Shown here: one piece after another, positions 11,816-44,140 of the stretch | Position numbering within the stretch: position 1 is the first letter of the stretch | Layout: the number at the start of each line of letters is the position of its first letter | IMG/VR virus record: IMGVR_UViG_3300020045_011785 | Coordinates: 7,973 to 71,972 of that record | From: a virus | Taxonomy: Duplodnaviria > Caudoviricetes | Length of the DNA: 64,000 nucleotides | Direction: 5' to 3' (one strand) | Notes under the pieces: generated by a model | The model's input: only the letters and a program-made list of their open reading frames with translations | Database searches by the model: none | What the model was told of the DNA's origin: nothing | Program-made: the position numbers and the translations under genes

Positions 11816-11819
11816 CTAT

Positions 11820-14251: not shown

Positions 14252-14283
14252 TTAGGAGACGTCAAGAAGATTTATTATATTCC
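14252..14283 (+). promoter_or_regulatory. Promoter variant for 5' exonuclease
   Basis: TTAG-N20-TATATTCC. Confidence 0.5.
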
Positions 14284-14289
14284 ACTCAT

Positions 14290-15327
14290 ATGAACAAGAA
14301 CGAACTATTAAACCTCCTAAACCAAATGGATCAGCAAGAAGAAGGTTCTGCCAATCCACACGAGCGAGTACTGCTAATCGATGGATTAAATTTGTTTTTT
14401 AGGAACTTTGCAATGATGAACTTTGTAAATGAACAAGGTGTTCACATTGGGGGTTTAGGAGGTTTTATTCGTTCTCTTAATTCATTAATTAATCAAATTA
14501 AACCAACTTCTGTTTATGTAGTATTTGATGGAACAGGTTCATCAGTAAACAGAAAAAATTTATTACCCGAATACAAATCAGGCCGTAACTTGGTTCGTAT
14601 TACAAACTGGGATGCTTTTGATTCTCTAGAGGATGAACATGATTCTAAGATTGATCAAATTGTAAGATTAATTCATTATCTAAAATGTTTGCCTGTTAAA
14701 ACATTAAGTTTAGATAAGGTAGAGGCCGATGATATTATTGCTTATTTAAGTGATATATTGCCTAAAAAACACAATTCTCAGGTTTTCATAGTATCTAATG
14801 ATAAGGATTTTGTTCAATTAGTAGACGAGAAAGTTATACTTTTCCGTCCTGGAGAAAAAGAATATTACACTAAAAAATTAGTAAAAGAGAAATTTGGTGT
14901 ACTAGCTGAAAATTTTATTCTGTACAAAACATTATTAGGTGACCAATCAGATAAAGTAGCTGGTGTAAAAGGATTAGGTGAAAAGGGATTGCTTAAAAAG
15001 TTTCCCGAATTAGCAGAACGTGTACTTACATTTCAAGATATTATTGAAATAAGTGCTCAAAAACATAAAGAACATGTCGTGTATTCAAGAGTGGTATTCG
15101 ATATGGAACGATTAGAAAATAACTATCGTATTATGGACTTAGGAAATCCTTTGGTTGATGATGCTGAAAAGGAATACCTAGAGGATGTTGTAGAAGAATC
15201 TACTCCAGCTTTGAACACACAAGCTTTTTTATTACTTTACCACGAGGATGGAATAGGTCATATGATCAAAAATCCCGAATTTACAATTAATGACACGTAC
15301 AAAGTATTAAACAGTTTTACAAAATAA
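14290..15327 (+). CDS. 5'-3' exonuclease (PolI N-terminal / T4 RNase H / FEN family)
   Basis: LLIDGLN, VFDG, YKSGR, EADD, VSNDKDF, GDQSDKVAGVKGLG. Confidence 0.92.
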   Translation: MNKNELLNLLNQMDQQEEGSANPHERVLLIDGLNLFFRNFAMMNFVNEQGVHIGGLGGFIRSLNSLINQIKPTSVYVVFDGTGSSVNRKNLLPEYKSGRNLVRITNWDAFDSLEDEHDSKIDQIVRLIHYLKCLPVKTLSLDKVEADDIIAYLSDILPKKHNSQVFIVSNDKDFVQLVDEKVILFRPGEKEYYTKKLVKEKFGVLAENFILYKTLLGDQSDKVAGVKGLGEKGLLKKFPELAERVLTFQDIIEISAQKHKEHVVYSRVVFDMERLENNYRIMDLGNPLVDDAEKEYLEDVVEESTPALNTQAFLLLYHEDGIGHMIKNPEFTINDTYKVLNSFTK

Positions 15328-16713: not shown

Positions 16714-18570
16714 ATGTTAACCACAGAATCACAAATTTTGTCTGAAATTACTACCCACCTCAAATACGCGAAATTCGTACCTGAAAAAAACAGGAGAGAA
16801 ACGTGGGACGAGCTAGTAACTCGAAACAAGGAAATGCACTTAAAGAAGTTTCCTCAATTGGCTGAAGAAATTGAAGCCGCTTACAAGTATGTTTATGACA
16901 AAAAGGTACTACCATCAATGCGTTCAATGCAGTTTGCTGGTAAACCTATTGAAATAAACAATGCTCGTATTTTTAACTGTTCTTACTTACCAATCGATGA
17001 TTTCAGAGCATTTTCAGAAATTATGTTCTTGTTATTGTCAGGTTGCGGAGTAGGATATTCTGTTCAAACACATCACGTTGAACAACTACCCGAAATTAGA
17101 AAACCTTTGAAACAAAAGCGTTATCTAGTAGGTGATTCTATTGAAGGATGGGCTGATGCCGTTCGTATGTTGACTAAAGCATATTTTGGACAAACATCAA
17201 CCGCTCCTCTATTTGACTTTAGAGACATCAGAGCTAAAGGTGCCTCATTGATTACTGTTGGTGGTAAAGCACCAGGTCCTGAACCATTGAAAATTGCTTT
17301 GATTCATATGCAAGCGATTTTGGATCGTAAAAACGATGGTGAAAAATTAACAACTTTGGAATGTCACGACATTATTTGTCACTTGGCTGATGCTGTATTG
17401 TCCGGAGGTATTCGTAGAGCTGCTTTGATTGCTTTGTTTAATCTTCACGATGAGGATATGTTGACTTGTAAATTTGGTCCTTGGTGGGAAAATAACCCAC
17501 AACGTGGTCGTGCCAACAACTCAGCAGTATTGCTTCGTAACATGATTGATAAAGAAACATTTATGAACTTGTGGGGCAAAATTGAGGCATCTAATAGTGG
17601 TGAACCTGGTTTCTTGTTTACAAACGATAAAGATGCTGGAACAAATCCTTGCGCTGAAATTAACTTGAAAGCTAATCAATTCTGTAACTTGTGTGAAATC
17701 AACGCTTCAGATATTGAAACGCAAGAGGAATATAATGCAAGAGCTAAAGCAGCAGCATTTATTGGTACATTACAAGCTTCATATACTGATTTCCATTACT
17801 TGAGAGATGTTTGGAGAAAAACAACTGAAAAAGAAGCATTGTTAGGTATTGGAATGACAGGTATTGCTTCAGGTGCTGTATTTAAATTGAACATGAAAGA
17901 AGCAGCTAAAGTAGCAGTTGATGAAAATGAACGTGTTGCTAAAGTATTAGGTATTAATAAAGCGGCTCGTGTCACTACAGTTAAACCTTCAGGTACTACA
18001 TCTTTGGTATTAGGTACTAGTTCAGGTATCCATGCTTGGCACGATGATTTCTATTTACGTAGAATTCGTTTAGGTAAAAATGAAGCATTGTATACTTACT
18101 TGAGTATTAATCATCCTGAAATGTTGGAAGATGATTTCTTCAAACCAACATTACAATCAATTGTTTCTGTTCCTCAACGTGCTCCAGAAGGTGCCATTAC
18201 ACGTAAAGAATCAGCTATGGATATGTTAGAGCGTATTAAAACTATTAACAAAAACTGGATCAAACCAGGTCATAGAAAAGGTGCTAATATGCATAACGTA
18301 TCAGCTACTGTTACTATTAAGCATGATGAATGGCCTGTAGTTGGAGAATGGCTTTATGAAAATAAAGACTACTTTACCGCATTGTCATTCCTACCGGAAG
18401 ACTTGGGAAGTTATAAACAACCTCCTTTCGAGACAATCACTAAAGAGGAATTTGAAGCTGCTGTTTCTTCACTTCATGCCGTAGATTTATCTAAAGTTGT
18501 TGAATTTGCTGATAATACAGCATTGATGGACCAGCAAGCATGCAGTGGAGGGGCCTGCGAAATAGTGTAA
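16714..18570 (+). CDS. nrdJ: Class II (B12-dependent) ribonucleotide reductase
   Basis: FNCS, GTNPCAEI, CNL, TVKPSGT, C-terminal CSGGAC; no beta-subunit gene adjacent. Confidence 0.88.
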   Translation: MLTTESQILSEITTHLKYAKFVPEKNRRETWDELVTRNKEMHLKKFPQLAEEIEAAYKYVYDKKVLPSMRSMQFAGKPIEINNARIFNCSYLPIDDFRAFSEIMFLLLSGCGVGYSVQTHHVEQLPEIRKPLKQKRYLVGDSIEGWADAVRMLTKAYFGQTSTAPLFDFRDIRAKGASLITVGGKAPGPEPLKIALIHMQAILDRKNDGEKLTTLECHDIICHLADAVLSGGIRRAALIALFNLHDEDMLTCKFGPWWENNPQRGRANNSAVLLRNMIDKETFMNLWGKIEASNSGEPGFLFTNDKDAGTNPCAEINLKANQFCNLCEINASDIETQEEYNARAKAAAFIGTLQASYTDFHYLRDVWRKTTEKEALLGIGMTGIASGAVFKLNMKEAAKVAVDENERVAKVLGINKAARVTTVKPSGTTSLVLGTSSGIHAWHDDFYLRRIRLGKNEALYTYLSINHPEMLEDDFFKPTLQSIVSVPQRAPEGAITRKESAMDMLERIKTINKNWIKPGHRKGANMHNVSATVTIKHDEWPVVGEWLYENKDYFTALSFLPEDLGSYKQPPFETITKEEFEAAVSSLHAVDLSKVVEFADNTALMDQQACSGGACEIV

Positions 18571-18789: not shown

Positions 18790-19923
18790 ATGTTTGAAAA
18801 AATTAAAGCAAGGGTATTTCCTTTAATCATTGCATTTTCAGCCTTATCTGTAAGTGCTTCAGCAGCGGTTTATAGTGTTACTGGTCTTAGCATGTTATTT
18901 GCTGGGGCCAGTACCGCTGTAATGATTATGGCCGCCTCTTTAGAGGTATCAAAATTAGTAATTGCCTCTTTATTATACCAATATTGGGATAAACTAAATA
19001 AAATACTAAGAACGTATCTAACAATAGCCGCTACTGTATTAATCCTAATCACATCAGCAGGTATTTATGGTTACTTATCTTCAGCTTATCAGAAAACAGC
19101 AGACCAAACTTCTATTGTAGATTCTAAAATAGCGTCTTTAGAAACAAAAAAGAAACTTTATGAAAATACTAGAAACGGTATTTTACAAGAAAAACAATCC
19201 CTATCAGAATTAAAAGGTACTTTATCTAAAGGTACTACAACCCAATTTACAGACCGTAAAGGTAATTTAGTAGTAAAATCTAATAATGCCTCTATTAAAC
19301 AGATAGAAAACGCATCTAAATCAGATGAAAAATTATCTGCTAAATTAGATATAGTAAATGACTCTATATTTGCTTTAGAAACCAAAATGTTAGAAATTAA
19401 AACTACGGCTGTAGGAGAAAGTGAATTAGGTCCCTTAAAATATTTGAGCCAACTTACAGGAGTTGCTATGGACAGGATCATTAACTGGTACATATTAGTT
19501 ATTATATTTGTATTTGATCCATTAGCTATTGCTTTAGTAGTGGCCGCTAACTTTGCTTTTGCCCAACTTACTAGACGCGTAGAAACACCACTAGAGGAAA
19601 AAGTAGAGGACATGAGAAAAGTAGTTGATGCTTATGATGATTTAGAAGATGAGATAAAACAGTACGAAATCTATAGAGAACAAGATGAATCAACAGAAGA
19701 TATTGAAGATAAAGAAGATGATTGGATAATTGAGGATGAAGAAAAAAATATCAATGAAGAATTTATTAAATCATTAGATAAAATAAATGAAATTAATGAT
19801 GGTAAAGAAGATTTCTTTTGGAAAAAAGCTAGAATAGATGAAGAAATTGATCGAATTAAAGCTTATGAACAATCCTTAAAACAAAAGAAACGAGATGAAG
19901 ACGAAAATATAATAATTTATTAA
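18790..19923 (+). CDS. Membrane protein with periplasmic/coiled-coil insert and acidic tail
   Basis: Three hydrophobic N-terminal segments, coiled coil, fourth TM (ILVIIFVFDPLAIALVVAA). Confidence 0.7.
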   Translation: MFEKIKARVFPLIIAFSALSVSASAAVYSVTGLSMLFAGASTAVMIMAASLEVSKLVIASLLYQYWDKLNKILRTYLTIAATVLILITSAGIYGYLSSAYQKTADQTSIVDSKIASLETKKKLYENTRNGILQEKQSLSELKGTLSKGTTTQFTDRKGNLVVKSNNASIKQIENASKSDEKLSAKLDIVNDSIFALETKMLEIKTTAVGESELGPLKYLSQLTGVAMDRIINWYILVIIFVFDPLAIALVVAANFAFAQLTRRVETPLEEKVEDMRKVVDAYDDLEDEIKQYEIYREQDESTEDIEDKEDDWIIEDEEKNINEEFIKSLDKINEINDGKEDFFWKKARIDEEIDRIKAYEQSLKQKKRDEDENIIIY

Positions 19924-20002: not shown

Positions 20003-20236
20003 ATGATGACAATTGAAGAAATTTACCAAGCAGAACAAGAATTAGCTCGTTTTAATGCCCTTATGTCTTACAAAGAAGTTCTTACTCAAGAGGAGTATGA
20101 ATTTTGTAAAGCATGGGATGCCGAAGAAGCTAAAAATTTAGCTCATATTGCTTGGAATAATACTTACTTGAATTTAAATTTATATTCCGAAGTTGATAAA
20201 GAAGAATCTGATTTAAGAAAGGAACAAGGTATATGA
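20003..20236 (+). CDS. Hypothetical protein
   Basis: GTT-ATG at 20003 downstream of promoter 19952-19983; the track start at 19940 runs through the promoter. Confidence 0.6.
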   Translation: MMTIEEIYQAEQELARFNALMSYKEVLTQEEYEFCKAWDAEEAKNLAHIAWNNTYLNLNLYSEVDKEESDLRKEQGI

Positions 20237-20745
20237 GCATGATTCAAGATTGTTTAAAGTGGAAAGCCACTCATGATCCAACACCCCCAAAACCTAACAA
20301 AACTTACAACAAGTTTTTTTGGTGGAGGCGTTATCAAGAACATAAAACGTTGTCTAAGATGGCCTCTATTTGGGACAAAGCCAAAAACGGTGATTATGAT
20401 GTTACCCCGTATTACAAACAACGAGAGTACGAGTTTTGGTTTGAAGAACAGGAAATTGCCAAATACAAATCCAATTATACTGGTTCCTATGAAAATATTG
20501 ATTGGCAAGAACGTCAAATCACAAAATTATATTGGGAGCGTCGCAAACGTTTGCTGAATGATGCAGAACGTGATGAATTGAATCGTTGGACCACGTTTGT
20601 TAAAGATGTCAAAATAAATTTTGGTGGTACTGAAGAACAAATTAAAGAAATGTTTGAATCGTTTGAAGGTACTATACCTGAGTTTTTAGAGGCATATAAA
20701 GAGTCAAGAAACCTTCCAAAAATTCAACCTGTTCCTAAATTTTAA
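20233..20745 (+). CDS. Hypothetical protein
   Basis: 170 aa, ATGA-coupled to the upstream gene. Confidence 0.65.
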   Translation: MSMIQDCLKWKATHDPTPPKPNKTYNKFFWWRRYQEHKTLSKMASIWDKAKNGDYDVTPYYKQREYEFWFEEQEIAKYKSNYTGSYENIDWQERQITKLYWERRKRLLNDAERDELNRWTTFVKDVKINFGGTEEQIKEMFESFEGTIPEFLEAYKESRNLPKIQPVPKF

Positions 20746-20781: not shown

Positions 20782-21558
20782 ATGAAATTATCTCACGAAG
20801 TTCCTATTTGTTTATTGGAAGATAGTCTAGATTTTAATGATTATCAGTATTGTTTGCCTCACTTGTTAGATAAAGACGAGGATTACAAAAATTTCTTTTA
20901 TAGAGTTAAAAAAGACGGTGTTTATACTATTATGGATAACTCTTTACATGAATTAGGAGTAGCATATGGTGAAGATCGTTTATTATACTGGATTGATGAA
21001 CTAAGACCAAATGAATTCATAATTCCAGATGTTTGGCAAGATACAAATGCATCTATTGTTAATGCTAGAAAATGGGCTCAAATTAGTTTACCTAAAGGTG
21101 TTACTAAAGTAGCAGTAGTTCAAGCTCAAAACTTTTTAGATGCTATTCTTTGTTATCAAACATATAAAGATTTAGGTTATAAAAAGATTGCGTTTTCTTA
21201 TGGAGCTGAGTATTATTTAGATCATTCTAACCATCCAAATAAAAATCTTGCTAAAGCTTTAGGTAGAATCGAGGTAGTAGGTAGAATGTATAGTATAGGT
21301 ATAATTCAACCAAACGATAGAGTACATCTATTAGGATGCCAGGTACCACAAGAATTTAGTTGGTACAAAGATGCTGGTTTTATTGAAACAATTGATACTT
21401 CGAATCCTATTATGGCTACAATTGATGGTATTCAGTATGGTCGTAATGGTTTAACAGAAAAACCAAAAGCAAATATGAATGATCACTTTTACACAACAGA
21501 TATAGATTATAATTTGTTGGATTGGAATTTAAGAATGTTTAGAAAATTATTAAAATAA
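20782..21558 (+). CDS. dpdA: TGT-fold protein, putative DpdA-like deazaguanine transglycosylase
   Basis: Ordered TGT-like motifs MDNS, IPD, VVQ, HLLG, IDTS; heads the que cluster. Confidence 0.6.
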   Translation: MKLSHEVPICLLEDSLDFNDYQYCLPHLLDKDEDYKNFFYRVKKDGVYTIMDNSLHELGVAYGEDRLLYWIDELRPNEFIIPDVWQDTNASIVNARKWAQISLPKGVTKVAVVQAQNFLDAILCYQTYKDLGYKKIAFSYGAEYYLDHSNHPNKNLAKALGRIEVVGRMYSIGIIQPNDRVHLLGCQVPQEFSWYKDAGFIETIDTSNPIMATIDGIQYGRNGLTEKPKANMNDHFYTTDIDYNLLDWNLRMFRKLLK

Positions 21559-21997: not shown

Positions 21998-22357
21998 ATG
22001 GAACCACTTAAATATACAGGAACATCAAGCACAGCTACTGGTACCCCACTAGGTTTGATATGCACAGGAACAGGAGGAACACCTTATATTCCAACAACAT
22101 CAGGTACAGTATCTTTTAGCACACCAATCAATTTTACACAATCAACAACAAAACAAATTATGCAAAATAAAGTAGCAGTTTTCAAAGTCACAAGAGACGA
22201 ATTTGAAACAATCACAAAAACCGAGTTCATTAAAGAACTTTGGGTAGAAACTAAGAACGGACAATCAGTAGACTTTCAAGTAGCTAGAGATAAAGATTTA
22301 GCTGATTACGAAATGTCTGATTTATCTATTAGAACCATTTATTCAATATCATTCTAA
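21998..22357 (+). CDS. Hypothetical protein with Thr/Gly-rich N-terminus
   Basis: 119 aa, coupled to queC. Confidence 0.6.
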   Translation: MEPLKYTGTSSTATGTPLGLICTGTGGTPYIPTTSGTVSFSTPINFTQSTTKQIMQNKVAVFKVTRDEFETITKTEFIKELWVETKNGQSVDFQVARDKDLADYEMSDLSIRTIYSISF

Positions 22358-23238
22358 TGACAAAACAAGCAGTATTATCGTTAAGTGGTGGAATGGATAG
22401 TTCCACCCTACTGCTTCATCTACTTGCCAATGGCTATGAAGTAACATGTTTGTCTTTTGATTATGGACAAAAACACAATGTAGAATTACAACGTGCTAAA
22501 GAATTAGTAAAGTATTTGAATGCTCACTCTCGTTATGAGGATGAACAGTACTATGCTAAAATAAAGCATCAAACAATCACTCTAAAAGGACTTGACAAAT
22601 TACTTAATTCAGCACTTGTAAAGGGTGGTAATGATGTTCCTGAAGGACACTATGCTGAAGACAACATGAAGGCAACAGTTGTTCCTAATCGTAATAAAAT
22701 CTTTAGTTCAATCATACAAGCTGCCGCTTTATCAATTGCAGAACAAACAGGTAAAAATTGTGCTATTGCTATGGGAATCCATGCAGGTGATCACTCAATT
22801 TATCCAGATTGTAGACAAGAATTCAGAGATGCTGATTTTGAGGCCTTTAAATTAGGTAACTGGGGTTCTGAAAAAGTATACCTTTATACTCCTTATCTGT
22901 TAGGTGATAAATTTGATATTTTGAAAGATGGAGAAAGGTGTTGTACTTACCTTCATTTGAATTTTGATAAGGTGTATGCTAAAACAAATACATCTTACAA
23001 ACCAATTCAACACACAGTTTATTATAATGAAGGTGAAAATACAGTTGAATCAGAAGAATGGTTTAGTGATTACAAATCAGCCTCATCTGTTGAACGAGTA
23101 GAAGCATTTATTAAACTAGGTCGTAAAGATGCTGTTCAATACGCTGATGAATATGGTCCTGTAACTTGGGAATACGTAAAAGAGTACGTATCTTCCGTGT
23201 TAGAAAATTATGAGGACTCCAAAACGACCAACATCTAA
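22357..23238 (+). CDS. queC: QueC-like ATP-dependent enzyme (7-cyano-7-deazaguanine synthase family), Zn-site cysteines absent
   Basis: SGGMDSST, FDYGQKH, VPNRN, GIHAGDH..YPDCR. Confidence 0.88.
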   Translation: MTKQAVLSLSGGMDSSTLLLHLLANGYEVTCLSFDYGQKHNVELQRAKELVKYLNAHSRYEDEQYYAKIKHQTITLKGLDKLLNSALVKGGNDVPEGHYAEDNMKATVVPNRNKIFSSIIQAAALSIAEQTGKNCAIAMGIHAGDHSIYPDCRQEFRDADFEAFKLGNWGSEKVYLYTPYLLGDKFDILKDGERCCTYLHLNFDKVYAKTNTSYKPIQHTVYYNEGENTVESEEWFSDYKSASSVERVEAFIKLGRKDAVQYADEYGPVTWEYVKEYVSSVLENYEDSKTTNI

Positions 23239-23568: not shown

Positions 23569-23810
23569 GACAAATATTTTATTTTACAGCCCCTTGGTGC
23601 CAACCATGTCAGACCTTAGGTCCTATTATGGATAAGGTATCAAACCAACTTCCAGTTGAAAAAATTAATATTGACTATGAAATGGATAGAGCTCGTGGTG
23701 CAAACGTTATGAGTGTTCCTACTGTAATACTCGTGGAAAACGGACAAGAGGTTCGTAGATTCACAGGTGTAAGATCATATGAACAAGTAATACAATTTAT
23801 CAATGGGTAA
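23565..23810 (+). CDS. Thioredoxin
   Basis: FTAPWCQPCQ, SVPT. Confidence 0.88.
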   Translation: MRQIFYFTAPWCQPCQTLGPIMDKVSNQLPVEKINIDYEMDRARGANVMSVPTVILVENGQEVRRFTGVRSYEQVIQFING

Positions 23811-24279
23811 GTATCAATCAACAAAACTATTCGACAACTATTCAGTTGCTATCAGACAGTGGAAAGCACAGCATTCACATTGTCAATTGTTACACGGCTA
23901 TGCTTTGAAATTCAAAGTATGGTTTGAATCAGTAGAACCACTAGAGGAAAACCAGTTAGATGAAATGAACTGGATTCAAGATTACGGTGGGTTTAAATCT
24001 AAACCAATTGGAAATGGTTTAAAAGATTGGATGGATTATATGTGGGACCATACTTTATTGATTGAAAAAGATGATCCATATTTGGACTTGTTTGAATCAA
24101 TGAATCCTACAGTATGCCATTTGAGAGTAATGGATAAAATTGGAGCAGAAAGTGCTGCTAAAATGGTTTATGATAAATTCAATGAGGAATTGTCTAAACA
24201 AGGTGGTGGTCGAGTTAAAGTAACCAAAGTAGAGTGTTGGGAAGCAAATAAAAATTCATCAATTTATACAGAAAATTAA
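23803..24279 (+). CDS. queD: 6-carboxytetrahydropterin synthase
   Basis: HCQLLHGY, WDH, AE, VECWE (T-fold). Confidence 0.85.
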   Translation: MGKYQSTKLFDNYSVAIRQWKAQHSHCQLLHGYALKFKVWFESVEPLEENQLDEMNWIQDYGGFKSKPIGNGLKDWMDYMWDHTLLIEKDDPYLDLFESMNPTVCHLRVMDKIGAESAAKMVYDKFNEELSKQGGGRVKVTKVECWEANKNSSIYTEN

Positions 24280-24280
24280 T

Positions 24281-25066
24281 ATGGAAGATAAAAAACCAGG
24301 TCGTATTCTCGACTATAACAAAAGATTACCTGTACTTGAAGTTTATACTTGTATTCAAAGTGAAGGTTCAAGACAAGGTCGCCCAACAGTAGCTATTAGA
24401 ACAACAGGTTGTACACACCGTTGTTGGTTTGGTGCTGGTGGATGGTGTGATTCTTGGTATACAAGTATCCACCCTGAAAAAGGTATTTACACATTTAATG
24501 ACATTATTAAGATTTATGATGAAAATCCTGAAATCACAGAAATGATGTTAACAGGAGGTTCACCAACTATGCAACCTGATTTGTGTAATGAGTTAACTCA
24601 CTTTGCTCATGAACGTGGTATATGTATAACCATTGAGACAGAAGGTAGCCACTTTATTGAAACTGATTATCCGTTTGGGTTGGTATCTTTATCTCCAAAG
24701 TTTAGCAATTCTATTCCTAAGCTTGACGTTACCACTCCAATGGGCAAGCTCGTGGATCAAAAAATGATCGACAAACACAATAGTTTACGTTTGAATCATG
24801 ATGCCATCAGTAAAACATTAGCTTACCATTCAGATTACCACTACAAACCAGTTTATGATGGTACTGAAGAAACAATGGCTGAAATTGAGGAATTTAGAGT
24901 AAAACATAATATTCCAAAGAATAAAACATGGTTGATGCCTGCTGGTGATACTAGAGAGGAATTGATTAAACAATATCCTATTTCACTAGAAAAAGCATTT
25001 GAAATGGGTTATAACTGGACTGGTAGAGACCACATTATTGCTTACGATACTAAGAGAGCTGTTTAA
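24281..25066 (+). CDS. queE: 7-carboxy-7-deazaguanine synthase (radical SAM)
   Basis: IQSEG, CTHRCWFGAGGWCDS, LTGGSP, IETEG, SPK. Confidence 0.88.
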   Translation: MEDKKPGRILDYNKRLPVLEVYTCIQSEGSRQGRPTVAIRTTGCTHRCWFGAGGWCDSWYTSIHPEKGIYTFNDIIKIYDENPEITEMMLTGGSPTMQPDLCNELTHFAHERGICITIETEGSHFIETDYPFGLVSLSPKFSNSIPKLDVTTPMGKLVDQKMIDKHNSLRLNHDAISKTLAYHSDYHYKPVYDGTEETMAEIEEFRVKHNIPKNKTWLMPAGDTREELIKQYPISLEKAFEMGYNWTGRDHIIAYDTKRAV

Positions 25067-25467
25067 TGGATTTATTATCTACACATCCTGTTAAAAAATC
25101 AGATTTAGGTTTCCACGGTAATCTATTCGGCGGCAAATTGCTTAGCTGGTTAGATGCCGCGGTTGCTGCCTATGCAATGGAAAAATGTAGAAGTCAAAAC
25201 ATGATTACTATTGCTATGGATCAGTGTGTGTTTAAAAAACCAGCTAAAGAAAAACAACTTGTTAAAATTTACGCTCAGTTAGTTAAAATAGGAAATACAT
25301 CAGCTACCTTTAATGTTGAGGCAAGAGCATATAACGTATTTAGAGGTGATGAAGCGATTCTGTTAGCTACAAGTATGACCTTTGTAAGAGTAGATGAAGA
25401 AGGAAGCCCAATCCCAATTTCAGAACAAGTTAAAAGAGTATTTAATACTCCACCCTCAAAATTATAA
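25066..25467 (+). CDS. Hotdog-fold acyl-CoA thioesterase (YciA-like)
   Basis: GNLFGGKLLSWLDAA, IGNTS, TFVRVD. Confidence 0.82.
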   Translation: MDLLSTHPVKKSDLGFHGNLFGGKLLSWLDAAVAAYAMEKCRSQNMITIAMDQCVFKKPAKEKQLVKIYAQLVKIGNTSATFNVEARAYNVFRGDEAILLATSMTFVRVDEEGSPIPISEQVKRVFNTPPSKL

Positions 25468-25479
25468 TATTTATAATAT

Positions 25480-25731
25480 ATGAAACCACAAATAACATTT
25501 TTTTATACTAACGAGTGTGGTAAGTGTGCTGATTTAAAACCTATTATTAATGAGTTTTCCCAACACTTAAACATTCAAATGGTAAATACATATGAAGATG
25601 ATTTGATTACTGAAGCTAATGGAGTACAATGGGTACCTACTTTGGTAATTGAAGATCAAAACGGTAAACACAAATTTGAAGGACCAAAAGAAATTAAAAA
25701 AGTTTTGTATGAAATTGTATCTCCATCATAA
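25480..25731 (+). CDS. Thioredoxin-like protein
   Basis: ECGKC (CxxC), WVPTL. Confidence 0.75.
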   Translation: MKPQITFFYTNECGKCADLKPIINEFSQHLNIQMVNTYEDDLITEANGVQWVPTLVIEDQNGKHKFEGPKEIKKVLYEIVSPS

Positions 25732-26224
25732 AGACATTGAAAATCGTATTCATGAGTTAGCTCATGAGGTAAACGATGCCCATTACTTAGACGATAACAA
25801 ATTTGTTATGGTAGGAATCCTTAATGGAGGGTTTATGGTGTTTACTGAGTTTGTAAAACACTTAACAATTCCTGTTGAATGTGATTTTGTTAGAGTAAAA
25901 TCATACACAGGTAAAAAACAGGGTAAAATTGAAATTACTAAGGACATTGAGTGTGATATTAAAAACAAACACGTTTTCCTAATTGATGATTTTGCTGATT
26001 CAGGAAAAACAATTCAACACCTGATTGCTGAATTAGATCTTAAAGGGGCTAAAACAATTTCAGTAGTTACTTTATTCAAACGTAAATCTCAACCAAGTTT
26101 AATTCTTCCAGTAGACGGAATCCACTACAATGGTTTTGATGTAGAAGAGGAATGGTTAGTAGGTTATGGATTAGATGATGAAAATGGCTATTACAGAAAC
26201 TTATCAAATGTTTATTCCATTTGA
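25709..26224 (+). CDS. hpt: Hypoxanthine-guanine phosphoribosyltransferase family, copy 1
   Basis: GILNGG, KSY, LIDDFADSGKT, WLVGYGLD; likely ATG at 25709. Confidence 0.85.
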   Translation: MKLYLHHKDIENRIHELAHEVNDAHYLDDNKFVMVGILNGGFMVFTEFVKHLTIPVECDFVRVKSYTGKKQGKIEITKDIECDIKNKHVFLIDDFADSGKTIQHLIAELDLKGAKTISVVTLFKRKSQPSLILPVDGIHYNGFDVEEEWLVGYGLDDENGYYRNLSNVYSI

Positions 26225-26256
26225 TTTGTTTATTTAAAAAATTATTATTATATTAC
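26225..26256 (+). promoter_or_regulatory. Bacteroidota-type promoter for folE
   Basis: TTTG-N20-TATATTAC. Confidence 0.6.
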
Positions 26257-26266
26257 AATATAAGTT

Positions 26267-26959
26267 ATGGAAAATAAAAAAACATTTACACTCGATCTAG
26301 AGTGTGTAAAACAAGGTTATGCTAACGGTGTAGCACCTAACTTCCCACTTACTGATGAACAAAAATGGGACATGGTAGAAAATGCAACCGAAGCATATGG
26401 TAAATTCCTAGATGCCCTAGGATGTGATTGGAGAAATGACCCTAATAGTTCAGATACTCCTCGTCGTGTAGCTAAAGCTTATGTATTTGATTTGTGGAAA
26501 GGCAGATATGAACCAATGAGTGATATTACCTCATTTCCAAGTGATGGTTATGATGGTATTGTTATTGAACGTAACATTCCACTTACTTCAATGTGTTCTC
26601 ATCACCACCAAACAATCGGAGGTGTAGTTCATATTGGTTACATTGTAGGTGAAAATGGTTCTGTAATTGGTTTGTCTAAATTGAATCGTATTGTTGAGCA
26701 TTTTGGACGTAGAGGTGCTATTCAAGAACAACTTACATCAGCAATTCACCAAGCAGTAGATAAAATCTGTGAAAATAACAAAGGTGTAATTGTAACTGTA
26801 GTTGCAACTCACAATTGTGTAAGCTGTAGAGGTATTAAACACCAAGGTGCCTCAATGGTTACTACAAAAGCATCAGGAGTGTTCTTGAACAACGAAAATC
26901 AAGCACGTAAAGAATTCTTCGACAGCTTGAAAATCAATAACGGAGGCCACCAGATCTAA
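26267..26959 (+). CDS. folE: GTP cyclohydrolase I
   Basis: DTPRRVAK, SMCSHH, GLSKLNR, IQEQL, HNCVSCRG. Confidence 0.95.
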   Translation: MENKKTFTLDLECVKQGYANGVAPNFPLTDEQKWDMVENATEAYGKFLDALGCDWRNDPNSSDTPRRVAKAYVFDLWKGRYEPMSDITSFPSDGYDGIVIERNIPLTSMCSHHHQTIGGVVHIGYIVGENGSVIGLSKLNRIVEHFGRRGAIQEQLTSAIHQAVDKICENNKGVIVTVVATHNCVSCRGIKHQGASMVTTKASGVFLNNENQARKEFFDSLKINNGGHQI

Positions 26960-26961
26960 TT

Positions 26962-27114
26962 ATGGAAAAAAGAACATACACCGTTACTGTTAAAGAACGA
27001 AACAGTATTTCAACCACAAAAACTCATGTTCAAGCCGAGAGTGAACAAGATGCAAGACGTATTGTAGAATCTCGTGGTGCTAAAGTAATTCAAATCCAAT
27101 ACGGAAAAATATAA
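26962..27114 (+). CDS. Small hypothetical protein (50 aa, not in track)
   Basis: MEKRTYTVTVKE...VQAESEQDARRIV; TAATG-coupled to next ORF. Confidence 0.5.
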   Translation: MEKRTYTVTVKERNSISTTKTHVQAESEQDARRIVESRGAKVIQIQYGKI

Positions 27115-27284
27115 TGAAGCTAGGTGGTATTGTTGAACTGTTGATTAAGATAATTACTTTTGGACAAGGCCACCGAATTGCTTTATTCATAGCCAAAAGA
27201 ATGGGTTATGATGATTGTGGATGTAAAGCAAGAAAAGACAAGTTAGACTTGTTTTGGGACAAAATATTAAATAAATTAAAGTAA
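27114..27284 (+). CDS. Small hypothetical protein with CGC motif (56 aa, not in track)
   Basis: MKLGGIVELLIKIITFG...GYDDCGCKARKDKLD; TAATG-coupled at both ends. Confidence 0.55.
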   Translation: MKLGGIVELLIKIITFGQGHRIALFIAKRMGYDDCGCKARKDKLDLFWDKILNKLK

Positions 27285-27790
27285 TGTTATTAAATTCAAA
27301 TCAAATCGCAAATCACGTTATTGAATCAGATTTCTCTAAACGTGCACAAATTGGCATTGACCTGTCAGTATGTAAAATTGAGCGTATTGATGTGGGTTCT
27401 GTTGTCTATACAGACAAAACTCATATTGATGCCGCAGGTTACCATGAGCTTCCAACTCAACTTATAGACGGTAGAGAATGTTGGAGACTAGAAAAAGGTG
27501 TATATTCTGTTACCTTTAACGAGGGAATTAAAGTACCAGCTGATGCTGCCGCTAAAATTACTCACCGCTCATCTTTGTATCGTACAGGAACTATTATCGA
27601 ATCACCTTGGTGGGATCCAGGATTCTATTGTGACCAAATGAACACAACAATGATTGTAACAAGTGTTATTGTTATTGAAAAAAATGCTCGTATTGGACAA
27701 ATTGCATTCTGGCAAGTAGGTGAGGTAGGAGAGCAGTATGGTGGTGAAGGAAGTCAATGGCAAGGTTTAAACACAGCCTATAAAAAATAA
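27284..27790 (+). CDS. Trimeric dUTPase / dCTP deaminase superfamily, copy 1
   Basis: GIDL, HRSSLYRTG, WDPGF, RIGQIAF; deaminase catalytic Glu not evident. Confidence 0.8.
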   Translation: MLLNSNQIANHVIESDFSKRAQIGIDLSVCKIERIDVGSVVYTDKTHIDAAGYHELPTQLIDGRECWRLEKGVYSVTFNEGIKVPADAAAKITHRSSLYRTGTIIESPWWDPGFYCDQMNTTMIVTSVIVIEKNARIGQIAFWQVGEVGEQYGGEGSQWQGLNTAYKK

Positions 27791-27852: not shown

Positions 27853-30456
27853 ATGTATCAATCCATCTATTACGATAGAAACACTTACGAATATCATTTA
27901 CGAGATGATATAAAAGGTTGGAAAACATTTAAATATCAACCCACTCTATACCAACTTGATCCAGATGGTGAATTTGAAACCTTAGATGGACAGAGTGTAT
28001 CTCCTGTAAAAAAGATGGATGATTGGAAAGATCCTAAATATTTTGAAAAGGATGTTGATAAAGATACTCGTGTATTAGTAGATTTTTATTATGAATCAGA
28101 TGAAACACCTTCATACCATAATTTAGTTTATTTGGATATTGAGTGTGAAATTGCAGGAGCACTTACACCTGAAAACATTAAGGATCCTAAAGGTAAAATT
28201 ACATCAGTTGCTTTATATGATAACAATAGTAAAAAATATTATTGTTTGATTTTAGATGAACAGCAACTAATGAGTGAAGCCAAATCAAAGAGTAAAGAGG
28301 TTATCCCTTATAAAACGGAAAAAGAATTACTTAATGGTTTTCTTGATTTGTGGATTAATTTAGACCCTACTATCATATCAGGATGGAATAGTGAGTTTTT
28401 TGATATACCTTACCTGTATTATCGTATTAATAAAGTGATGGGAAATGATATGGGTAATTATTTGTCTCCAATTCAAAAAGTAAAAATTGATGTAACGTAT
28501 GAGGCAAATGGGGCTGTTGAAAACGTAAACATTGCAGGTGTTAACCATCTTGATTACATGAACTTGTTTAAAAAGTTTATTACTAAACAAGAGCCAAGTT
28601 ACGCGTTAGGTAATATTGGAGAAAAATATGTTAAGTTAGGTAAGATTGAATACAACGGTTCACTTGATAGATTATTTGTTGAGGATGTAGATAAGTTTAT
28701 TGAGTATAACATTCGAGACGTTGAAATTATTGTTGAACTAGAGAAAGCACTTAAGTTTATTGAATTAACAGTTACAATTGCTCACTTATGTCATACAACT
28801 TATGAATCAATTTATTACTCTACAGTACTAAATGATGGAGCTATTTTAACTTACCTAAAACGTAAAGGTATAGTTTCACCTAATAAACCTACTACCTACA
28901 ATCCAGCTCTAAAAACATTACAAGAGGAATATGCTGGAGGTTATTTAAAAGATCCTGTACCTGGTTTGTATGAGTGGGTTATTGATTTGGATTTTACCTC
29001 ACTGTATCCCTCTATTATCCGTTCACTCAATATGGGGATTGAAACATTAGTAGGGCGAGTTGTTAACAGAGATAAATTTGATAATCAATGGTCACTTAAG
29101 GAACTTAAATCAATGGATCCTAATAAAGTGGTTACTATTGAAAAAGTTAAACGGGATCGTAGATTATCTGAAGCACAGATTTCTGTAGGTGAATTGATAA
29201 AAATTATTGAACAAAATGATTTTATCATTTCAGCACCTGGAGTAATATTCCGTAAAGATAAATTAAGTGTTGTATGTGAAATCTTATCTGACTGGTTTGC
29301 TAAACGTCAAGAGTATAAAAAGCTCATGAAAAAAGCATACAAAGTAGATAACGACCCTGTTATGGGAGAGTTTTATAATAAGCGTCAACACGCGTATAAG
29401 ATTAAATTGAATGATGTTTACGGGGTATTTGCTATCAATGGTTGGAGATACACTGATGGACATAAATTTATTAGTAAAGCAATTACTTTAACAGGTCAAC
29501 GCTTGTTACAAGAAAGTATTGCTAATATGAATAATTACCTAAATAATGAATTAGGCAATGAAACACCAGTAGATTATATTGTTACAAGTGATACCGATTC
29601 ACTATTCATTCAGTGTAAGGATTTATTAAAAGCAAGACATCCTGATATTAATTTTAGTAACCAAGAGGATGTAATTAAAAAGATATTAGTAATTGCTACT
29701 GAATTACAAGCAATGGCAAATAAGTTTATTGGTGATTTTGCTAAAGATGCTTTTAATTTAGGAGAAAACACACAACATTATTTTGAGCTAAAGCAAGAGG
29801 TTGTACTTGATAGAGGTTATTTTGCAGGTAAGAGAAGATACGCCCAACATATTGTTAACAAAGAAGGTGTTCCTGTAGACGAATTGGATATGAAGGGTCT
29901 AGATTTGATGAAATCAAATTTCCCTCCATTGTTTAAAAAGTTTGGTGAACACATTATTAATGAAATTATGTTTGGTAAATCTAAAACAGATATTGATAAA
30001 CAAATATTAGATTTTAGAAACGAAATAAGAACAATTGGTTGGAAAAATATTCTTAAACCTACAGGTCTAAAGAAAATGGGAGAATACCTAGCAGGACCTC
30101 CAGGTGCAGGTGAAATATTTTCTAAATTGGCTTTAAAATGTCCTATTAATACTAAAGCAGCTATTTATACAAATGATATTTTACGGTTTAAGAAATTAGA
30201 TAAAAAATACCCAACATTCCAGATTGGAGATAAAATTTATTTAGTATACTTGAAAGATAATCCATACAGAATAGATGCTATTGCTTTAAATGGTTACAAT
30301 GATGCTCCTGAATTATTAGAGTTTGCTGAAAAATATATAGACAGAGACGGTTTGTTTGATAGTGTAATGAAGAATAAATTAGAAAGTTTGTATAGTGATC
30401 TTAACTGGGGTGCAGTAGTTCTTAATCCAAATATTAATAAATTCTTTAAGTTTTAA
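27853..30456 (+). CDS. Family B DNA polymerase
   Basis: ExoI LDIECE, ExoII GWNSEFFDIPY, DLDFTSLYPS, KIKLNDVYG, TSDTDS, KRRY. Confidence 0.96.
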   Translation: MYQSIYYDRNTYEYHLRDDIKGWKTFKYQPTLYQLDPDGEFETLDGQSVSPVKKMDDWKDPKYFEKDVDKDTRVLVDFYYESDETPSYHNLVYLDIECEIAGALTPENIKDPKGKITSVALYDNNSKKYYCLILDEQQLMSEAKSKSKEVIPYKTEKELLNGFLDLWINLDPTIISGWNSEFFDIPYLYYRINKVMGNDMGNYLSPIQKVKIDVTYEANGAVENVNIAGVNHLDYMNLFKKFITKQEPSYALGNIGEKYVKLGKIEYNGSLDRLFVEDVDKFIEYNIRDVEIIVELEKALKFIELTVTIAHLCHTTYESIYYSTVLNDGAILTYLKRKGIVSPNKPTTYNPALKTLQEEYAGGYLKDPVPGLYEWVIDLDFTSLYPSIIRSLNMGIETLVGRVVNRDKFDNQWSLKELKSMDPNKVVTIEKVKRDRRLSEAQISVGELIKIIEQNDFIISAPGVIFRKDKLSVVCEILSDWFAKRQEYKKLMKKAYKVDNDPVMGEFYNKRQHAYKIKLNDVYGVFAINGWRYTDGHKFISKAITLTGQRLLQESIANMNNYLNNELGNETPVDYIVTSDTDSLFIQCKDLLKARHPDINFSNQEDVIKKILVIATELQAMANKFIGDFAKDAFNLGENTQHYFELKQEVVLDRGYFAGKRRYAQHIVNKEGVPVDELDMKGLDLMKSNFPPLFKKFGEHIINEIMFGKSKTDIDKQILDFRNEIRTIGWKNILKPTGLKKMGEYLAGPPGAGEIFSKLALKCPINTKAAIYTNDILRFKKLDKKYPTFQIGDKIYLVYLKDNPYRIDAIALNGYNDAPELLEFAEKYIDRDGLFDSVMKNKLESLYSDLNWGAVVLNPNINKFFKF

Positions 30457-33186: not shown

Positions 33187-33795
33187 ATGAAAAAGTATTA
33201 TATATATACCTTAAGTAAAAATAAAACAATTTTCTATATTGGAAAAACTCTTAATTTAGATAAAAGATTGTCTAATCATAAAATAAAATATGGAAATGAT
33301 ATATTATTAGAAGTTTTAGATGAAACTACTAATTGGAAATCATCAGAAATATTTTGGATAGAACAATTTAGACAATGGGGTTTTTATTTAAAAAACAAAA
33401 ATAAAGGAGGTGGAGGACGAGATTACCAAACTGAAGAAATAAAAACAAAAATTGGTAAAAATCAACCCAAAACAAAAATCCGGAACTCTGAAACTAATAT
33501 AAAAATTGGTTTATCTAATAAAGGATTAAAGAAAAAACCTTGTAGTGATGAAAGAAAAGCTAAAATAAGTAAATCAAACAAAGGTAAACAATTTAACTTA
33601 GGAAAAAAATATAATACAATAACCTTTAAAAAAGTAATACAATATGATTTGCAAAATAATTTCATCAAAGAGTGGAATTCAGTAAAAGAAATATTATATT
33701 ATTTAGGAAAAAAACAAAACAATATGAGTATCTATAGATGTTTGCAAGGTCAATTAGATACAGCATATAAATTTAAATGGAAATACAAACAATAA
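33187..33795 (+). CDS. GIY-YIG homing endonuclease with NUMOD3/NUMOD1-like tail, between groES and groEL
   Basis: YYIY...FYIGKT, EIFWIEQF, NKGGGG, VIQYDLQNNFIKEWNS, YKFKWKY. Confidence 0.78.
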   Translation: MKKYYIYTLSKNKTIFYIGKTLNLDKRLSNHKIKYGNDILLEVLDETTNWKSSEIFWIEQFRQWGFYLKNKNKGGGGRDYQTEEIKTKIGKNQPKTKIRNSETNIKIGLSNKGLKKKPCSDERKAKISKSNKGKQFNLGKKYNTITFKKVIQYDLQNNFIKEWNSVKEILYYLGKKQNNMSIYRCLQGQLDTAYKFKWKYKQ

Positions 33796-37908: not shown

Positions 37909-38862
37909 TTGGGACGAAAGAAAAAAATACCTGCTATTGTAAAGCAGATCAAAAAGCAACCAGTTAATGAGGTTAACTATGCGACTCAAAAATCGATCTC
38001 GTATAGTCAACTCTCTATGTATACTAACTGTCCACGCAAATGGTCTTTACAGTATAAAGACGGTTTCTACACGTCTGAGTCATCGATTCATATGACGTTT
38101 GGGACAGCGTTGCATGAAACTTTACAGCATTATATAACAACTATATACGAGGAAAGTGGTGCTGCCGCTGATCGAATTGATTTAGATACCTATTTTGAAG
38201 AACGTTTTAGAGAAACATACTTAAAAGATTATACCTCAAATAAAAAGGTTCACTTTAGTGATCCTGTTCAAATGAGAGAATTTTTTGAAGATGGACTTGA
38301 AATCATTAAAGCTGTAAAGAAAAATAGAGCAGGTATTTTTGGGAAAAGGGGATGGCATTTAATTGGGTGTGAGGTTCCTATTGTTTTAACTCCACTACCT
38401 CAATTTAATAATGTTTTATATAAAGGTTATTTGGATGTTGTTTTGTATAACGAAACTTATAACGAATTTAAAATCCTAGATATTAAAACATCTACTAAAG
38501 GTTGGAGTGATTATGAGAAAAAAGACGAAACAAAACAATTCCAATTAATACTTTATAAGTATTTCTTCGCTAAACAATTTGGAGTTGATATTGAAAAAAT
38601 TGATATACAATTCTTTATTGTTAAACGTAAAATATGGAAAGACTCCCCATTTCCTATCTCCCGAATACAAGAATTTACTCCAGCATCTGGTAAAGTAAAA
38701 GTAAATAAAGCAGTAAATGCTGTAACAAGTTTTATAGAAGGTGTATTTAACACAGACGGTTCTTACAAAGACGTAACTCATGAACCAAATCCTTCGCTTA
38801 ATGGTTGTAAGTATTGTCCGTTTAAAGACAATAAAGAATTATGTGATAAAGGTATATCTTGA
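37909..38862 (+). CDS. Cas4/AddB-like PD-(D/E)XK exonuclease
   Basis: N-terminal CPRKW, GTALH, DIKTS, QLILY, C-terminal CKYCPF...C; TTG start. Confidence 0.8.
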   Translation: MGRKKKIPAIVKQIKKQPVNEVNYATQKSISYSQLSMYTNCPRKWSLQYKDGFYTSESSIHMTFGTALHETLQHYITTIYEESGAAADRIDLDTYFEERFRETYLKDYTSNKKVHFSDPVQMREFFEDGLEIIKAVKKNRAGIFGKRGWHLIGCEVPIVLTPLPQFNNVLYKGYLDVVLYNETYNEFKILDIKTSTKGWSDYEKKDETKQFQLILYKYFFAKQFGVDIEKIDIQFFIVKRKIWKDSPFPISRIQEFTPASGKVKVNKAVNAVTSFIEGVFNTDGSYKDVTHEPNPSLNGCKYCPFKDNKELCDKGIS

Positions 38863-38903
38863 AGAATCTTGATATATTTATAATATATATATTAGTAGAT
38901 ACT

Positions 38904-39347
38904 ATGGATAACATTCAAAATCAAGGAATTAAAATTTATGTTTATGCTTTAATTGATGAAAATGATCAAATAAAATATGTTGGTAAATCTAATACTCCAA
39001 AATCAAGATTAGCTAACCATAAATGTAATCTAAATAATCCTAAACTAAAAATGAAAATTTTAGATTATTTCTATGATATTGAACAATATTGGGTTAATAA
39101 ATTAATACAAGAAGGACATGATTTAATTAATAAAGAATTTTTTATTCATAATGAAGAATGGGAAAAAGGAGATATAATAGATACAAATGGTAAATTCTCT
39201 TTTAAAATATATGATAAAGAATTAAATATTACTTATAATAGTATGTATGAATTAAGTAAAATTATAAACTTAGACATCCAACAACTTCAAACCCGAATTA
39301 ACAAACCAGAAAAATACAAAGAGTTTGCCAAATATCAGATATTATAA
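38904..39347 (+). CDS. Divergent GIY-YIG endonuclease
   Basis: IYVYALID...KYVGKS..PKSRLANH, EQYWV; ATG at 38904. Confidence 0.6.
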   Translation: MDNIQNQGIKIYVYALIDENDQIKYVGKSNTPKSRLANHKCNLNNPKLKMKILDYFYDIEQYWVNKLIQEGHDLINKEFFIHNEEWEKGDIIDTNGKFSFKIYDKELNITYNSMYELSKIINLDIQQLQTRINKPEKYKEFAKYQIL

Positions 39348-44139: not shown

Positions 44140-44140
44140 T

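Follow-up and report, generated by a model that had tools for sequence, protein, structure and literature searches.

A 64-kb stretch of phage DNA (the window, taken from the 72-kb IMG/VR contig IMGVR_UViG_3300020045_011785) carries a gene for a 6-oxopurine phosphoribosyltransferase (PRTase copy 1, HPRT1) directly upstream of the gene for FolE, the first enzyme of the 7-deazaguanine pathway. Both genes belong to the downstream half of a cluster for 7-deazaguanine DNA modification of the DpdA3 type, which lies within a nucleotide-metabolism and replication module. A functional tie between the PRTase and the deazaguanine (que) genes is supported, because hundreds of contigs keep the PRTase slot, the slot is occupied by either of two unrelated families of the enzyme, and fusions to FolE occur; no publication on such a tie was found. 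On balance, with a confidence only a little above even, we read the PRTase as an enzyme that would salvage guanine to GMP, and through it GTP for FolE, while removing the guanine expelled by DpdA3. A first-pass annotation of the same DNA had proposed an undescribed system of guanine replacement at the nucleotide level. The comparison with relatives does not support this proposal and points instead to a DpdA3 cluster with an accessory PRTase and what is probably an ordinary dUTPase.

A DpdA3-type cluster with an accessory phosphoribosyltransferase

The window has a G+C content of ~32% with nearly all genes on the + strand, and the CheckV completeness of the 72-kb contig is ~44%. Scans with Pfam, NCBIfam and PHROG gave the upstream order gp32-like, RecA-like, FEN, DnaB, NrdJ, two conserved unknowns and the DpdA3 homologue. 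After DpdA3 come QueC, QueD, QueE, a 4HBT thioesterase, a thioredoxin, PRTase copy 1, FolE, two tiny open reading frames (ORFs), a DCD/dUTPase-fold gene, PolB, GroEL and a clamp loader, and the far end of the window holds ThyA, a 99-amino-acid ORF, PRTase copy 2 and a second DCD-fold gene. The genes from DpdA3 to PolB are the following.

20782-21558, + strand: DpdA3-type DNA guanine transglycosylase homologue (33% identity to immuto_2-6A DpdA, E 2e-50)
22357-23238, + strand: QueC variant of 293 amino acids (Pfam QueC 135 bits; TIGR00364 132 bits, cut-off 150)
23803-24279, + strand: QueD, CPH4 synthase (Pfam PTPS 42.6 bits)
24281-25066, + strand: QueE, a radical SAM enzyme and CDG synthase (Pfam Radical_SAM, weak; 57-95% identity to QueE of related loci)
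25066-25467, + strand: hotdog-fold (4HBT) thioesterase (Pfam 4HBT 61 bits; 61% identity to immuto26A_50)
25480-25731, + strand: small thioredoxin (Pfam Thioredoxin 31.6 bits)
25709-26224, + strand: PRTase copy 1 (HPRT1), HGPRT-family 6-oxopurine phosphoribosyltransferase (Pfam Pribosyltran 78 bits; TIGR01203 139.5 bits)
26267-26959, + strand: FolE, GTP cyclohydrolase I, first deazaguanine-pathway enzyme (Pfam GTP_cyclohydroI 146 bits; 74.7% nucleotide identity to immuto folE)
27284-27790, + strand: DCD1, DCD/dUTPase-fold nucleotide pyrophosphatase (Pfam DCD 42.3 bits, cut-off 27; NCBIfam PRK02253 77 bits, cut-off 130)
27853-30456, + strand: family B DNA polymerase PolB (Pfam DNA_pol_B and its exonuclease domain)

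All genes named in the first-pass annotation were recovered on the + strand at or near the places it had given them, with two corrections of order. The hpt gene does lie between queE and folE, but not directly after queE, since the thioesterase and thioredoxin genes intervene; the dUTPase-like gene does lie downstream of folE and before polB, but two small ORFs separate it from folE. The MazG-like protein that had also been invoked gave no match in the window by tblastn.

DpdA3, FolE, QueD and QueE, and QueC as well, are all present, the gene set of a DpdA3-type cluster. The arrangement resembles the DpdA3 cluster of Flavobacterium phage immuto_2-6A, in which every G is replaced by fdPreQ1 (Cui et al. 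2023, PMC10516641): in both, DpdA3 accompanies FolE, QueD, QueE and QueC next to replication genes, and the slots follow the order QueE, PRTase, FolE, NTP pyrophosphatase. The two differ in that the window PRTase is of HGPRT type and that of immuto (and of phiST) of Gpt type, the window NTPase is of DCD type and not MazG-like, the window QueC lacks the zinc motif, and the window polymerase is PolB; furthermore, QueF, DpdN, DpdL and Tmk were all absent from the window. We conclude that the window cluster is a DpdA3 deazaguanine cluster with an HGPRT-type accessory enzyme.

PRTase copy 1, whose start overlaps the thioredoxin stop by 23 nucleotides, aligns over its full length with the solved HG(X)PRTs 4QRI, 1HGX, 1G9S and 1BZY (E 1e-22 to 1e-27), the best being the two HGXPRTs 4QRI and 1HGX. 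Both PRTases of the window have the type I PRTase fold with its motif for binding phosphoribosyl pyrophosphate (PRPP), an acidic pair followed by D-T/S-G-x-T, which reads VFLIDDFADSGKT in copy 1 and VFIVDDIYDSGNT in copy 2, and both miss the TIGR01203 equivalog cut-off of 150 (139.5 and 126.1 bits, respectively). Residues were compared, with the numbering of human HGPRT, across aligned sequences, 46 from the phage clade and 73 from elsewhere. The loop II Ser-Tyr pair, D134, D137, D193 and R199 are invariant in both groups, whereas E133D, K165R and F186W are nearly fixed in the phage clade and nearly absent from the other sequences: position 165 is Arg in 98% of the phage clade and Lys in 99% of the others, and position 186 is Trp in 91% of the phage clade and Phe in 93% of the others. 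From what is known of HGPRT structures, we take D137 to contact the purine N7, Lys165 to contact the exocyclic O6 and Phe186 to stack on the purine. The phage HPRT sequences form a single virus-only clade (support 100/99), and within it copy 1 belongs to a long-stemmed sublineage (0.54 changes per site) that holds the que slot only in the nearest kin of the window. The dN/dS of copy 1 against its orthologues is 0.05-0.19, indicating purifying selection. Since its catalytic residues are invariant, its clade is well supported and its dN/dS is low, copy 1 is judged from its sequence to be intact and functional, a member of a virus-only branch of the HGPRT family whose purine pocket is slightly altered. 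In comparison with cellular Hpt/HGPRT (TIGR01203), it keeps the full-length alignment, the PRPP motif and the invariant residues listed above, and it differs in its virus-only clade, its three pocket substitutions, its score below the equivalog cut-off and its position beside FolE.

Conservation of the slot and a proposed guanine loop

A DpdA3 profile retrieved >540 IMG/VR contigs, and the window genes were mapped onto the best 80 of these (DpdA3 identity 55-89%); a second search, anchored on the PRTase, gave at least 399 viral contigs, of which the best 80 were likewise mapped. Down to 55% DpdA3 identity the loci repeat one module, in the order unk377, unk170, DpdA3, QueC, QueD, QueE, optional 4HBT and thioredoxin genes, PRTase, FolE, NTP pyrophosphatase and PolB. 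A 6-oxopurine PRTase occupies the slot in 31 of the 33 DpdA3 loci that span queE to polB (21 of HPRT type and 10 of Gpt type), and the gap between the PRTase and FolE genes is below 100 nucleotides in 30 of 35 pairs. Among the PRTase-anchored loci with room downstream, FolE adjoins the PRTase in 65 of 74 (within the best 80 of at least 399). This linkage of PRTase and que genes exceeds chance, and the association of hpt with que genes that the first-pass annotation had seen in the window thus extends to its relatives in both sets of loci. The two families are also exchanged within the slot, the HPRT type replacing the Gpt type of immuto in immuto-like loci that bear DpdN, Tmk and QueF.

The slot enzyme of immuto is a small Gpt/XGPRT-type PRTase (NF006613; PDB 4TRB, 4Z1O, 1A95) with only the PRPP motif in common with the HPRT type. 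This mini Gpt type conserves an RGG loop, the PRPP motif DDIxDxGxT and the purine motif WxVxPWE. Relative to FolE and the que genes it is placed as the window PRTase is, and it has the same presumed role, but it belongs to another PRTase family, is only 115-142 amino acids long, has no flexible loop and is often fused to FolE. Such a domain is fused to the FolE N-terminus in 34 cultured phage records, including the Queuovirinae phage VpKK5 as well as NP1, PaMx25, Quinobequin-P09 and Baskent_P4_1. Unfused copies occur in immuto and the phiST group, in Brevundimonas phage MaInes (FolE and Gpt adjacent) and in the PA5oct group (gpt and queE adjacent). Nearly all Gpt-type matches in genuine phage genomes fall in phages with deazaguanine genes, the few exceptions being short unannotated records; the HPRT-type query against cultured phages matched only bacterial-like hpt genes in phage-labelled records. 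The activity native to both families is the phosphoribosylation of guanine (6-oxopurine).

[quoted passage not shown] The string 'phosphoribosyl' is absent from the text of PMC10516641, PMC6884629 and PMC10484667 (Cui 2023, Hutinet 2019, Olsen 2023), our searches returned no publication combining DpdA with 'phosphoribosyltransferase', and no paper describing a Gpt-type PRTase adjacent to or fused with FolE in deazaguanine phages was found.

Alternatively, the PRTase may merely boost the supply of GMP and IMP for DNA and RNA synthesis of the phage, as further auxiliary nucleotide genes do, and stand near folE through the general clustering of nucleotide and replication genes. The cluster does sit among NrdJ, thioredoxin, dUTPase, ThyA (in relatives) and polymerase genes, PRTase copy 2 adjoins ThyA and a dUTPase-type gene away from folE, the PRTase of phiST adjoins a dNMP-kinase-like gene and a ribonucleotide reductase (RNR) and not the que genes, and in one relative (G012) the PRTase lies 53 kb from folE. 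Yet PRTases are rare in phages while nearly all Gpt-type matches in genuine phages come from que-bearing ones, the HPRT-type clade adjoins FolE in the great majority of its loci as counted above, and the covalent fusion to FolE seen in 34 records would be difficult to account for if no specific link existed. We consider generic purine salvage of this kind quite unlikely.

In the reading that we prefer, PRTase copy 1 would convert guanine and PRPP to GMP, host kinases would raise GMP to GTP, and the adjacent FolE would turn GTP into the first pathway intermediate. QueD, QueE and QueC would build the 7-deazaguanine base, and DpdA3 would swap this base into DNA, freeing one guanine per exchange. 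The freed guanine would re-enter the loop through the PRTase, so that the precursor would be refilled one-for-one and the exchange product removed. Such a guanine loop may matter most where much of the G in phage DNA is replaced. The guanine substrate, the recycling loop and its effect on the level of substitution are parts that we infer from these comparisons.

The published model has a step neither for the expelled guanine nor for the large GTP demand of replacing every G. The PRTase, which in hundreds of phage contigs almost invariably adjoins FolE or is joined to it, may be an overlooked helper step for which two unrelated families were recruited. If guanine is recycled, this could help explain how DpdA3 phages reach complete substitution, and the PRTase would be a simple part to add when the pathway is rebuilt in E. 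coli, where DpdA3 has failed so far.

Several points weigh against a guanine-recycling role. No PRTase was detected in CP220, whose substitution is 100% dADG, by a six-frame search with PF00156, by tblastn with both phage types or by Pfam scans around QueD, and none was found in MA9V-3 or in the 96% complete relative G006; the enzyme would therefore be a helper and not a requirement. An Hpt or Gpt is usually encoded by the host itself. Two kinase reactions separate GMP from GTP, so that a place beside FolE, or a fusion with it, does not simply link consecutive steps, and because phage genes of one module cluster for expression as well, their adjacency is weaker evidence than it is in bacterial operons. 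In the pocket, a different base preference could follow from E133D, from K165R, which affects the O6 contact beside C7, and from F186W. Finally, the long stem of copy 1 together with a coexisting paralogue is the pattern seen when one copy gains a new function.

The purine pocket, the pyrophosphatase slot and proposed nucleotide-level routes

The proposal of the first-pass annotation gives the PRTase another substrate. The enzyme would phosphoribosylate CDG (7-carboxy-7-deazaguanine), ADG (7-amido-7-deazaguanine) or preQ0, host kinases and NrdJ would carry the product to the dNTP, and PolB would polymerize it, alongside or instead of DpdA3; we regard this as unlikely. A precedent for its first step exists in TubE, which joins CDG to PRPP in vitro (PMC6112128). 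TubE and ToyH, from tubercidin and toyocamycin biosynthesis, are purine-type PRTases encoded, like the window enzyme, with homologues of FolE, QueD and QueE (PMC6112128). Their clusters contain no enzyme for insertion into nucleic acid, and instead have GMP-reductase, decarboxylase and phosphatase tailoring genes, whereas the window has DpdA3 and gave no match to those tailoring families among the ORFs scanned. Furthermore, in the alignment published by its authors TubE is placed with PRTases of the Sulfolobus 4Z1O type and not with TIGR01203-type HGPRT, and the 4Z1O-type family is nearest to the Gpt type of immuto and not to the HGPRT type of the window. 4Z1O was also not among the 42 solved structures that copy 1 matched at E <= 1e-10, a comparison in which TubE is represented only through its published alignment with 4Z1O.

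The pocket itself can be read in both directions. The fixed changes of the phage clade, K165R along the O6/C7 edge and F186W where the base is stacked, speak for the proposal, yet the Asp that contacts N7 never varies, even though 7-deazapurines lack N7 and a substituent at C7 would collide with this residue. The new specificity would also have to arise independently in two unrelated PRTase families. A narrower version would confine it to the virus-only HPRT clade, retuned to 7-substituted 7-deazaguanine as TubE is for CDG, with host kinases, NrdJ and PolB then taking the ribonucleotide to DNA; this too we hold to be improbable. If true, complete G replacement would be at least partly pre-replicative, and DpdA3 would only repair the residue or act on nucleotides.

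Circumstances that could speak for incorporation by the polymerase come from the phages themselves. The PRTase is commonest in the DpdA3 clade, all tested members of which show 100% G replacement (PMC10516641), and the activity of DpdA3 is still undemonstrated, attempts in E. coli having been unsuccessful (PMC10516641). The ADG nucleoside has been reported from CP220-infected cells, a route through modified dGTP had been suggested for Campylobacter phages in 2019, when DpdA3 was not yet discovered, and NrdJ, thioredoxin and PolB belong to the same module. Against this, DpdA3 is present in every locus fetched, and the PRTase is dispensable, as it went undetected in fully substituted CP220. The suggestion that a PRTase route might operate in place of DpdA fares poorly, since a DpdA-family gene was found in every PRTase-bearing relative examined. 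The same PRTase clades occur in phages with different end products (immuto-like phages with QueF and DpdN, and the window clade without them). FolE fusions are found in phage groups whose tested relatives modify only 16-32% of G, and at fixed motifs; in the tested Queuovirinae (9g, CAjan and iggy) the modification is partial and motif-specific, a pattern that a polymerase route could not give. The clade also encodes no GMP or dNMP kinase; Tmk, DNMK and Gmk were absent from five relatives, in which weak Tmk matches corresponded to the clamp-loader gene.

The gene before polB bears on the other half of the proposal, in which a dUTPase-like or MazG-like protein trims competing dNTPs. The best solved relative of DCD1 is 9W59, a 'probable dUTPase' (E 8e-12), and its best family is the archaeal-type dUTPase. 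In an alignment to 2HXD and 1OGH, DCD1 has Thr at the position of the catalytic Glu145 of the M. jannaschii DCD-DUT, and is therefore of the pyrophosphatase and not of the deaminase type. The slot holds a MazG-like gene in 26 loci, a DCD-type gene in 7 (the subclade of the window) and a bacterial Dut in one locus, L107. This L107 Dut scores 85.8 bits over the full TIGR00576 model and has no detectable similarity to DCD1, while its neighbors are otherwise unchanged. A three-way non-orthologous displacement is thus seen before polB, with Dut in L107 (13985-14437), a DCD-type gene in L106 from the same sample (13983-14480) and MazG-like genes elsewhere.

The activity known to be common to the DCD-type, Dut and MazG-like families is dUTP hydrolysis. 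Four MazG-type genomes, 96-100% complete, were found to contain no further gene for a dUTPase or DCD protein. As the slot is swappable with Dut or MazG-like genes and the MazG-type genomes have no other dUTPase, it is most simply the phage dUTPase; DCD1 is probably such a dUTPase, an ordinary pool-cleaning enzyme by its sequence relationships. With the slot assigned in this way, no dGTP-destroying candidate is left, and the trimming role loses its enzyme. None of the window ORFs scanned matched an HD family, and the NTPases found in the window are all of DCD type, so that the removal of dGTP expected of pre-replicative replacement has no enzyme among them.

Established pre-replicative replacement uses dedicated enzymes, namely the dCTPase gp56 with gp42 and gp1 for hydroxymethylcytosine in T4, and PurZ with MazZ and DatZ in Z-genome phages. 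The window resembles these systems in that its polymerase gene adjoins a nucleotide-metabolism module which includes an NTP pyrophosphatase and an RNR; it differs in encoding no predicted dGTP-destroying enzyme and no dedicated kinase, and in encoding the post-replicative transglycosylase DpdA3. The comparative evidence thus weakens the nucleotide-level route without refuting it, and the chain from deazaguanine phosphoribosylation through NrdJ to PolB is left unsupported by a cluster in which DpdA3 is present, the N7 Asp is kept and neither a dGTPase nor a kinase is found. If the PRTase did activate the deazaguanine base, it could no longer be held that every modification of this kind is made after replication.

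DpdA3 and its neighbors, sister lineages and the second gene pair

The DpdA3 homologue of the window had tblastn matches in CP220-group, immuto and MA9V-3 phages. With 258 amino acids it is short, well below other DpdA/TGT proteins in length. The Pfam TGT model is unsuited to the detection of phage DpdA, as it misses both the window DpdA3 and the annotated DpdA of VpKK5.

This small size, with the undemonstrated activity on DNA, admits a further reading, in which DpdA3 would exchange guanine for the deazaguanine on dGMP or dGTP and not on DNA. The dGMP would come from the NTP pyrophosphatase, kinases would rephosphorylate the product, and the guanine set free would be salvaged by the PRTase. 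Such a scheme would agree with the P-loop kinase-like genes beside DpdA3 in phiST, MA9V-3, CP220 and immuto, with an NTP pyrophosphatase that is always nearby and with the 100% substitution of all tested members. However, the window clade has no kinase-like gene, beside DpdA3 or elsewhere, the NTPase slot is exchangeable with a bacterial Dut, and we know of no TGT-family enzyme that acts on mononucleotides. The neighboring P-loop proteins could instead be ATPase partners like bacterial DpdB (PMC10164549). We consider an action of DpdA3 on nucleotides very improbable.

These P-loop genes are small and kinase-like (AAA_18, AAA_33 or AAA_28) and lie at or at most 2 genes from DpdA3 in four cultured DpdA3 phage groups. 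They were located at 9049-9546 of L190 (phiST gp041), 9513-9983 of L008 (MA9V-3) and 15007-15531 of L001 (immuto, Tmk), and in CP220 as gp055 and gp057 at 10868-11899 and 12819-13361 of L007, one copy being fused to an HD domain. A P-loop gene next to DpdA3 could encode a DpdB-like ATPase partner or a nucleotide kinase. As candidates for a kinase or HD partner in the window clade, the two conserved genes upstream of DpdA3 were considered and rejected: unk377 is a membrane/coiled-coil protein, with hydrophobic helices at its N-terminus and center and an acidic tail, and unk170 has no P-loop. Together with NrdJ, these genes are placed as follows.

16714-18570, + strand: NrdJ, class II (B12) ribonucleotide reductase (Pfam Ribonuc_red_lgC and RNR-II insertion domain; kept upstream of the cluster in close relatives)
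18790-19923, + strand: unk377, conserved membrane/coiled-coil protein of 377 amino acids (no Pfam or PHROG family; upstream of DpdA3 in 62/80 loci)
20233-20745, + strand: unk170, conserved basic protein of 170 amino acids directly upstream of DpdA3 (no family match; in 61/80 loci)

In QueC of the window the PP-loop (SGGMDS) is intact and a YPDCR motif is present, the CxxCxxC zinc motif is missing, and the C-terminus is extended by ~80 amino acids. Because this QueC is a variant without the zinc motif and scores below the TIGR00364 cut-off, the end product may be ADG, preQ0 or another base. The 4HBT thioesterase gene between queE and the PRTase (25066-25467 in the window; 7927-8355 in L001) is repeated in many related clusters, and the window protein shares 61% identity with immuto26A_50, whereas the DpdA3 proteins of the same phage pair share only 33%. 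A thioesterase step appears in no published deazaguanine pathway.

The relative G012 (173 kb, CheckV 100%), with FolE, QueD, QueE, an HPRT-clade gene and no QueC seen, was considered as a DpdA-free phage with a gene set in the style of TubE and rejected, as a gene for a 420-amino-acid TGT-like protein follows its polB. Initial searches of G012 with the DpdA3 profile (E <= 5), VpKK5 DpdA, DUF6610 and Pfam TGT had been blank, and since its TGT-like gene went undetected, blank results of the six-frame first-look filter are unreliable. The protein carries a DSGGFQ motif and is 93% identical to those weakly detected in G014 and G015; it is a DpdA family other than DpdA3. The sister lineage to which these phages belong (L188, L195 (G012), L193 (G014), L194 (G015) and L162) has the order NrdJ, FolE, QueD and QueE without QueC, and the base in the G012 lineage is probably derived from CDG. 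In this lineage a UvdE-like endonuclease and PhoH precede PolB, and a glycosyltransferase-like gene and a TGT-like protein of 416-422 amino acids with DSGGFQ and Cys-rich motifs follow it.

The second PRTase of the window lies in the following group at its far end.

61660-62751, + strand: thymidylate synthase ThyA, 363 amino acids (Pfam Thymidylat_synt 298 bits in two stretches; TIGR03284 299 bits)
63095-63604, + strand: PRTase copy 2 (HPRT2), virus-only HGPRT clade (Pfam Pribosyltran 77.6 bits; TIGR01203 126.1 bits)
63606-63998, + strand: DCD2, second DCD/dUTPase-fold copy, cut by the contig end (Pfam DCD 34.8 bits; 58% identity to DCD1)

Copy 2 shares 47% identity with copy 1 and falls in the tree with those copies that occupy the que slot in the close relatives L013, L017, L021 and L022. 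Exactly one PRTase gene, located in the que slot, was found in 8 of 11 related records, including G004 (100% complete), G003 (97%), G005 (96%) and G001 (83%); in the other three, G006 (96% complete) and two records of lower completeness, there was no PRTase match. The first-pass annotation had assigned copy 2 to ordinary salvage, an assignment that sits badly with a lineage that supplies the que-slot copy of close relatives and with near-complete relatives that carry a single PRTase. In L197, the order ThyA, one further gene, HPRT and DCD, as found at 61.7-64 kb of the window, occurs inside a module running from QueD, QueE and 4HBT to PolA. The second PRTase and DCD pair of the window looks like a piece of a second, related module and not like a housekeeping set.

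At 8001-12989 of L197, the HPRT2-type PRTase and DCD-type gene are followed by a 514-amino-acid unknown protein and a family A polymerase in the place that PolB takes in the window; polymerases of either family can thus accompany the deazaguanine module. ThyA of the window (61660-62751) has an internal insertion; its counterpart lies directly upstream of DpdA3 in L040, L046, L057, L066 and L085, and between queE and folE in MA9V-3. Elsewhere in the window, GIY-YIG homing-endonuclease-like genes interrupt the replication module at 33187-33795 and 38859-39347, one of them with NUMOD1/NUMOD3 motifs, and a run of glycosyltransferase genes (GT4-, GT2- and GT10-like) with a DegT-type aminotransferase extends over 39569-46682.

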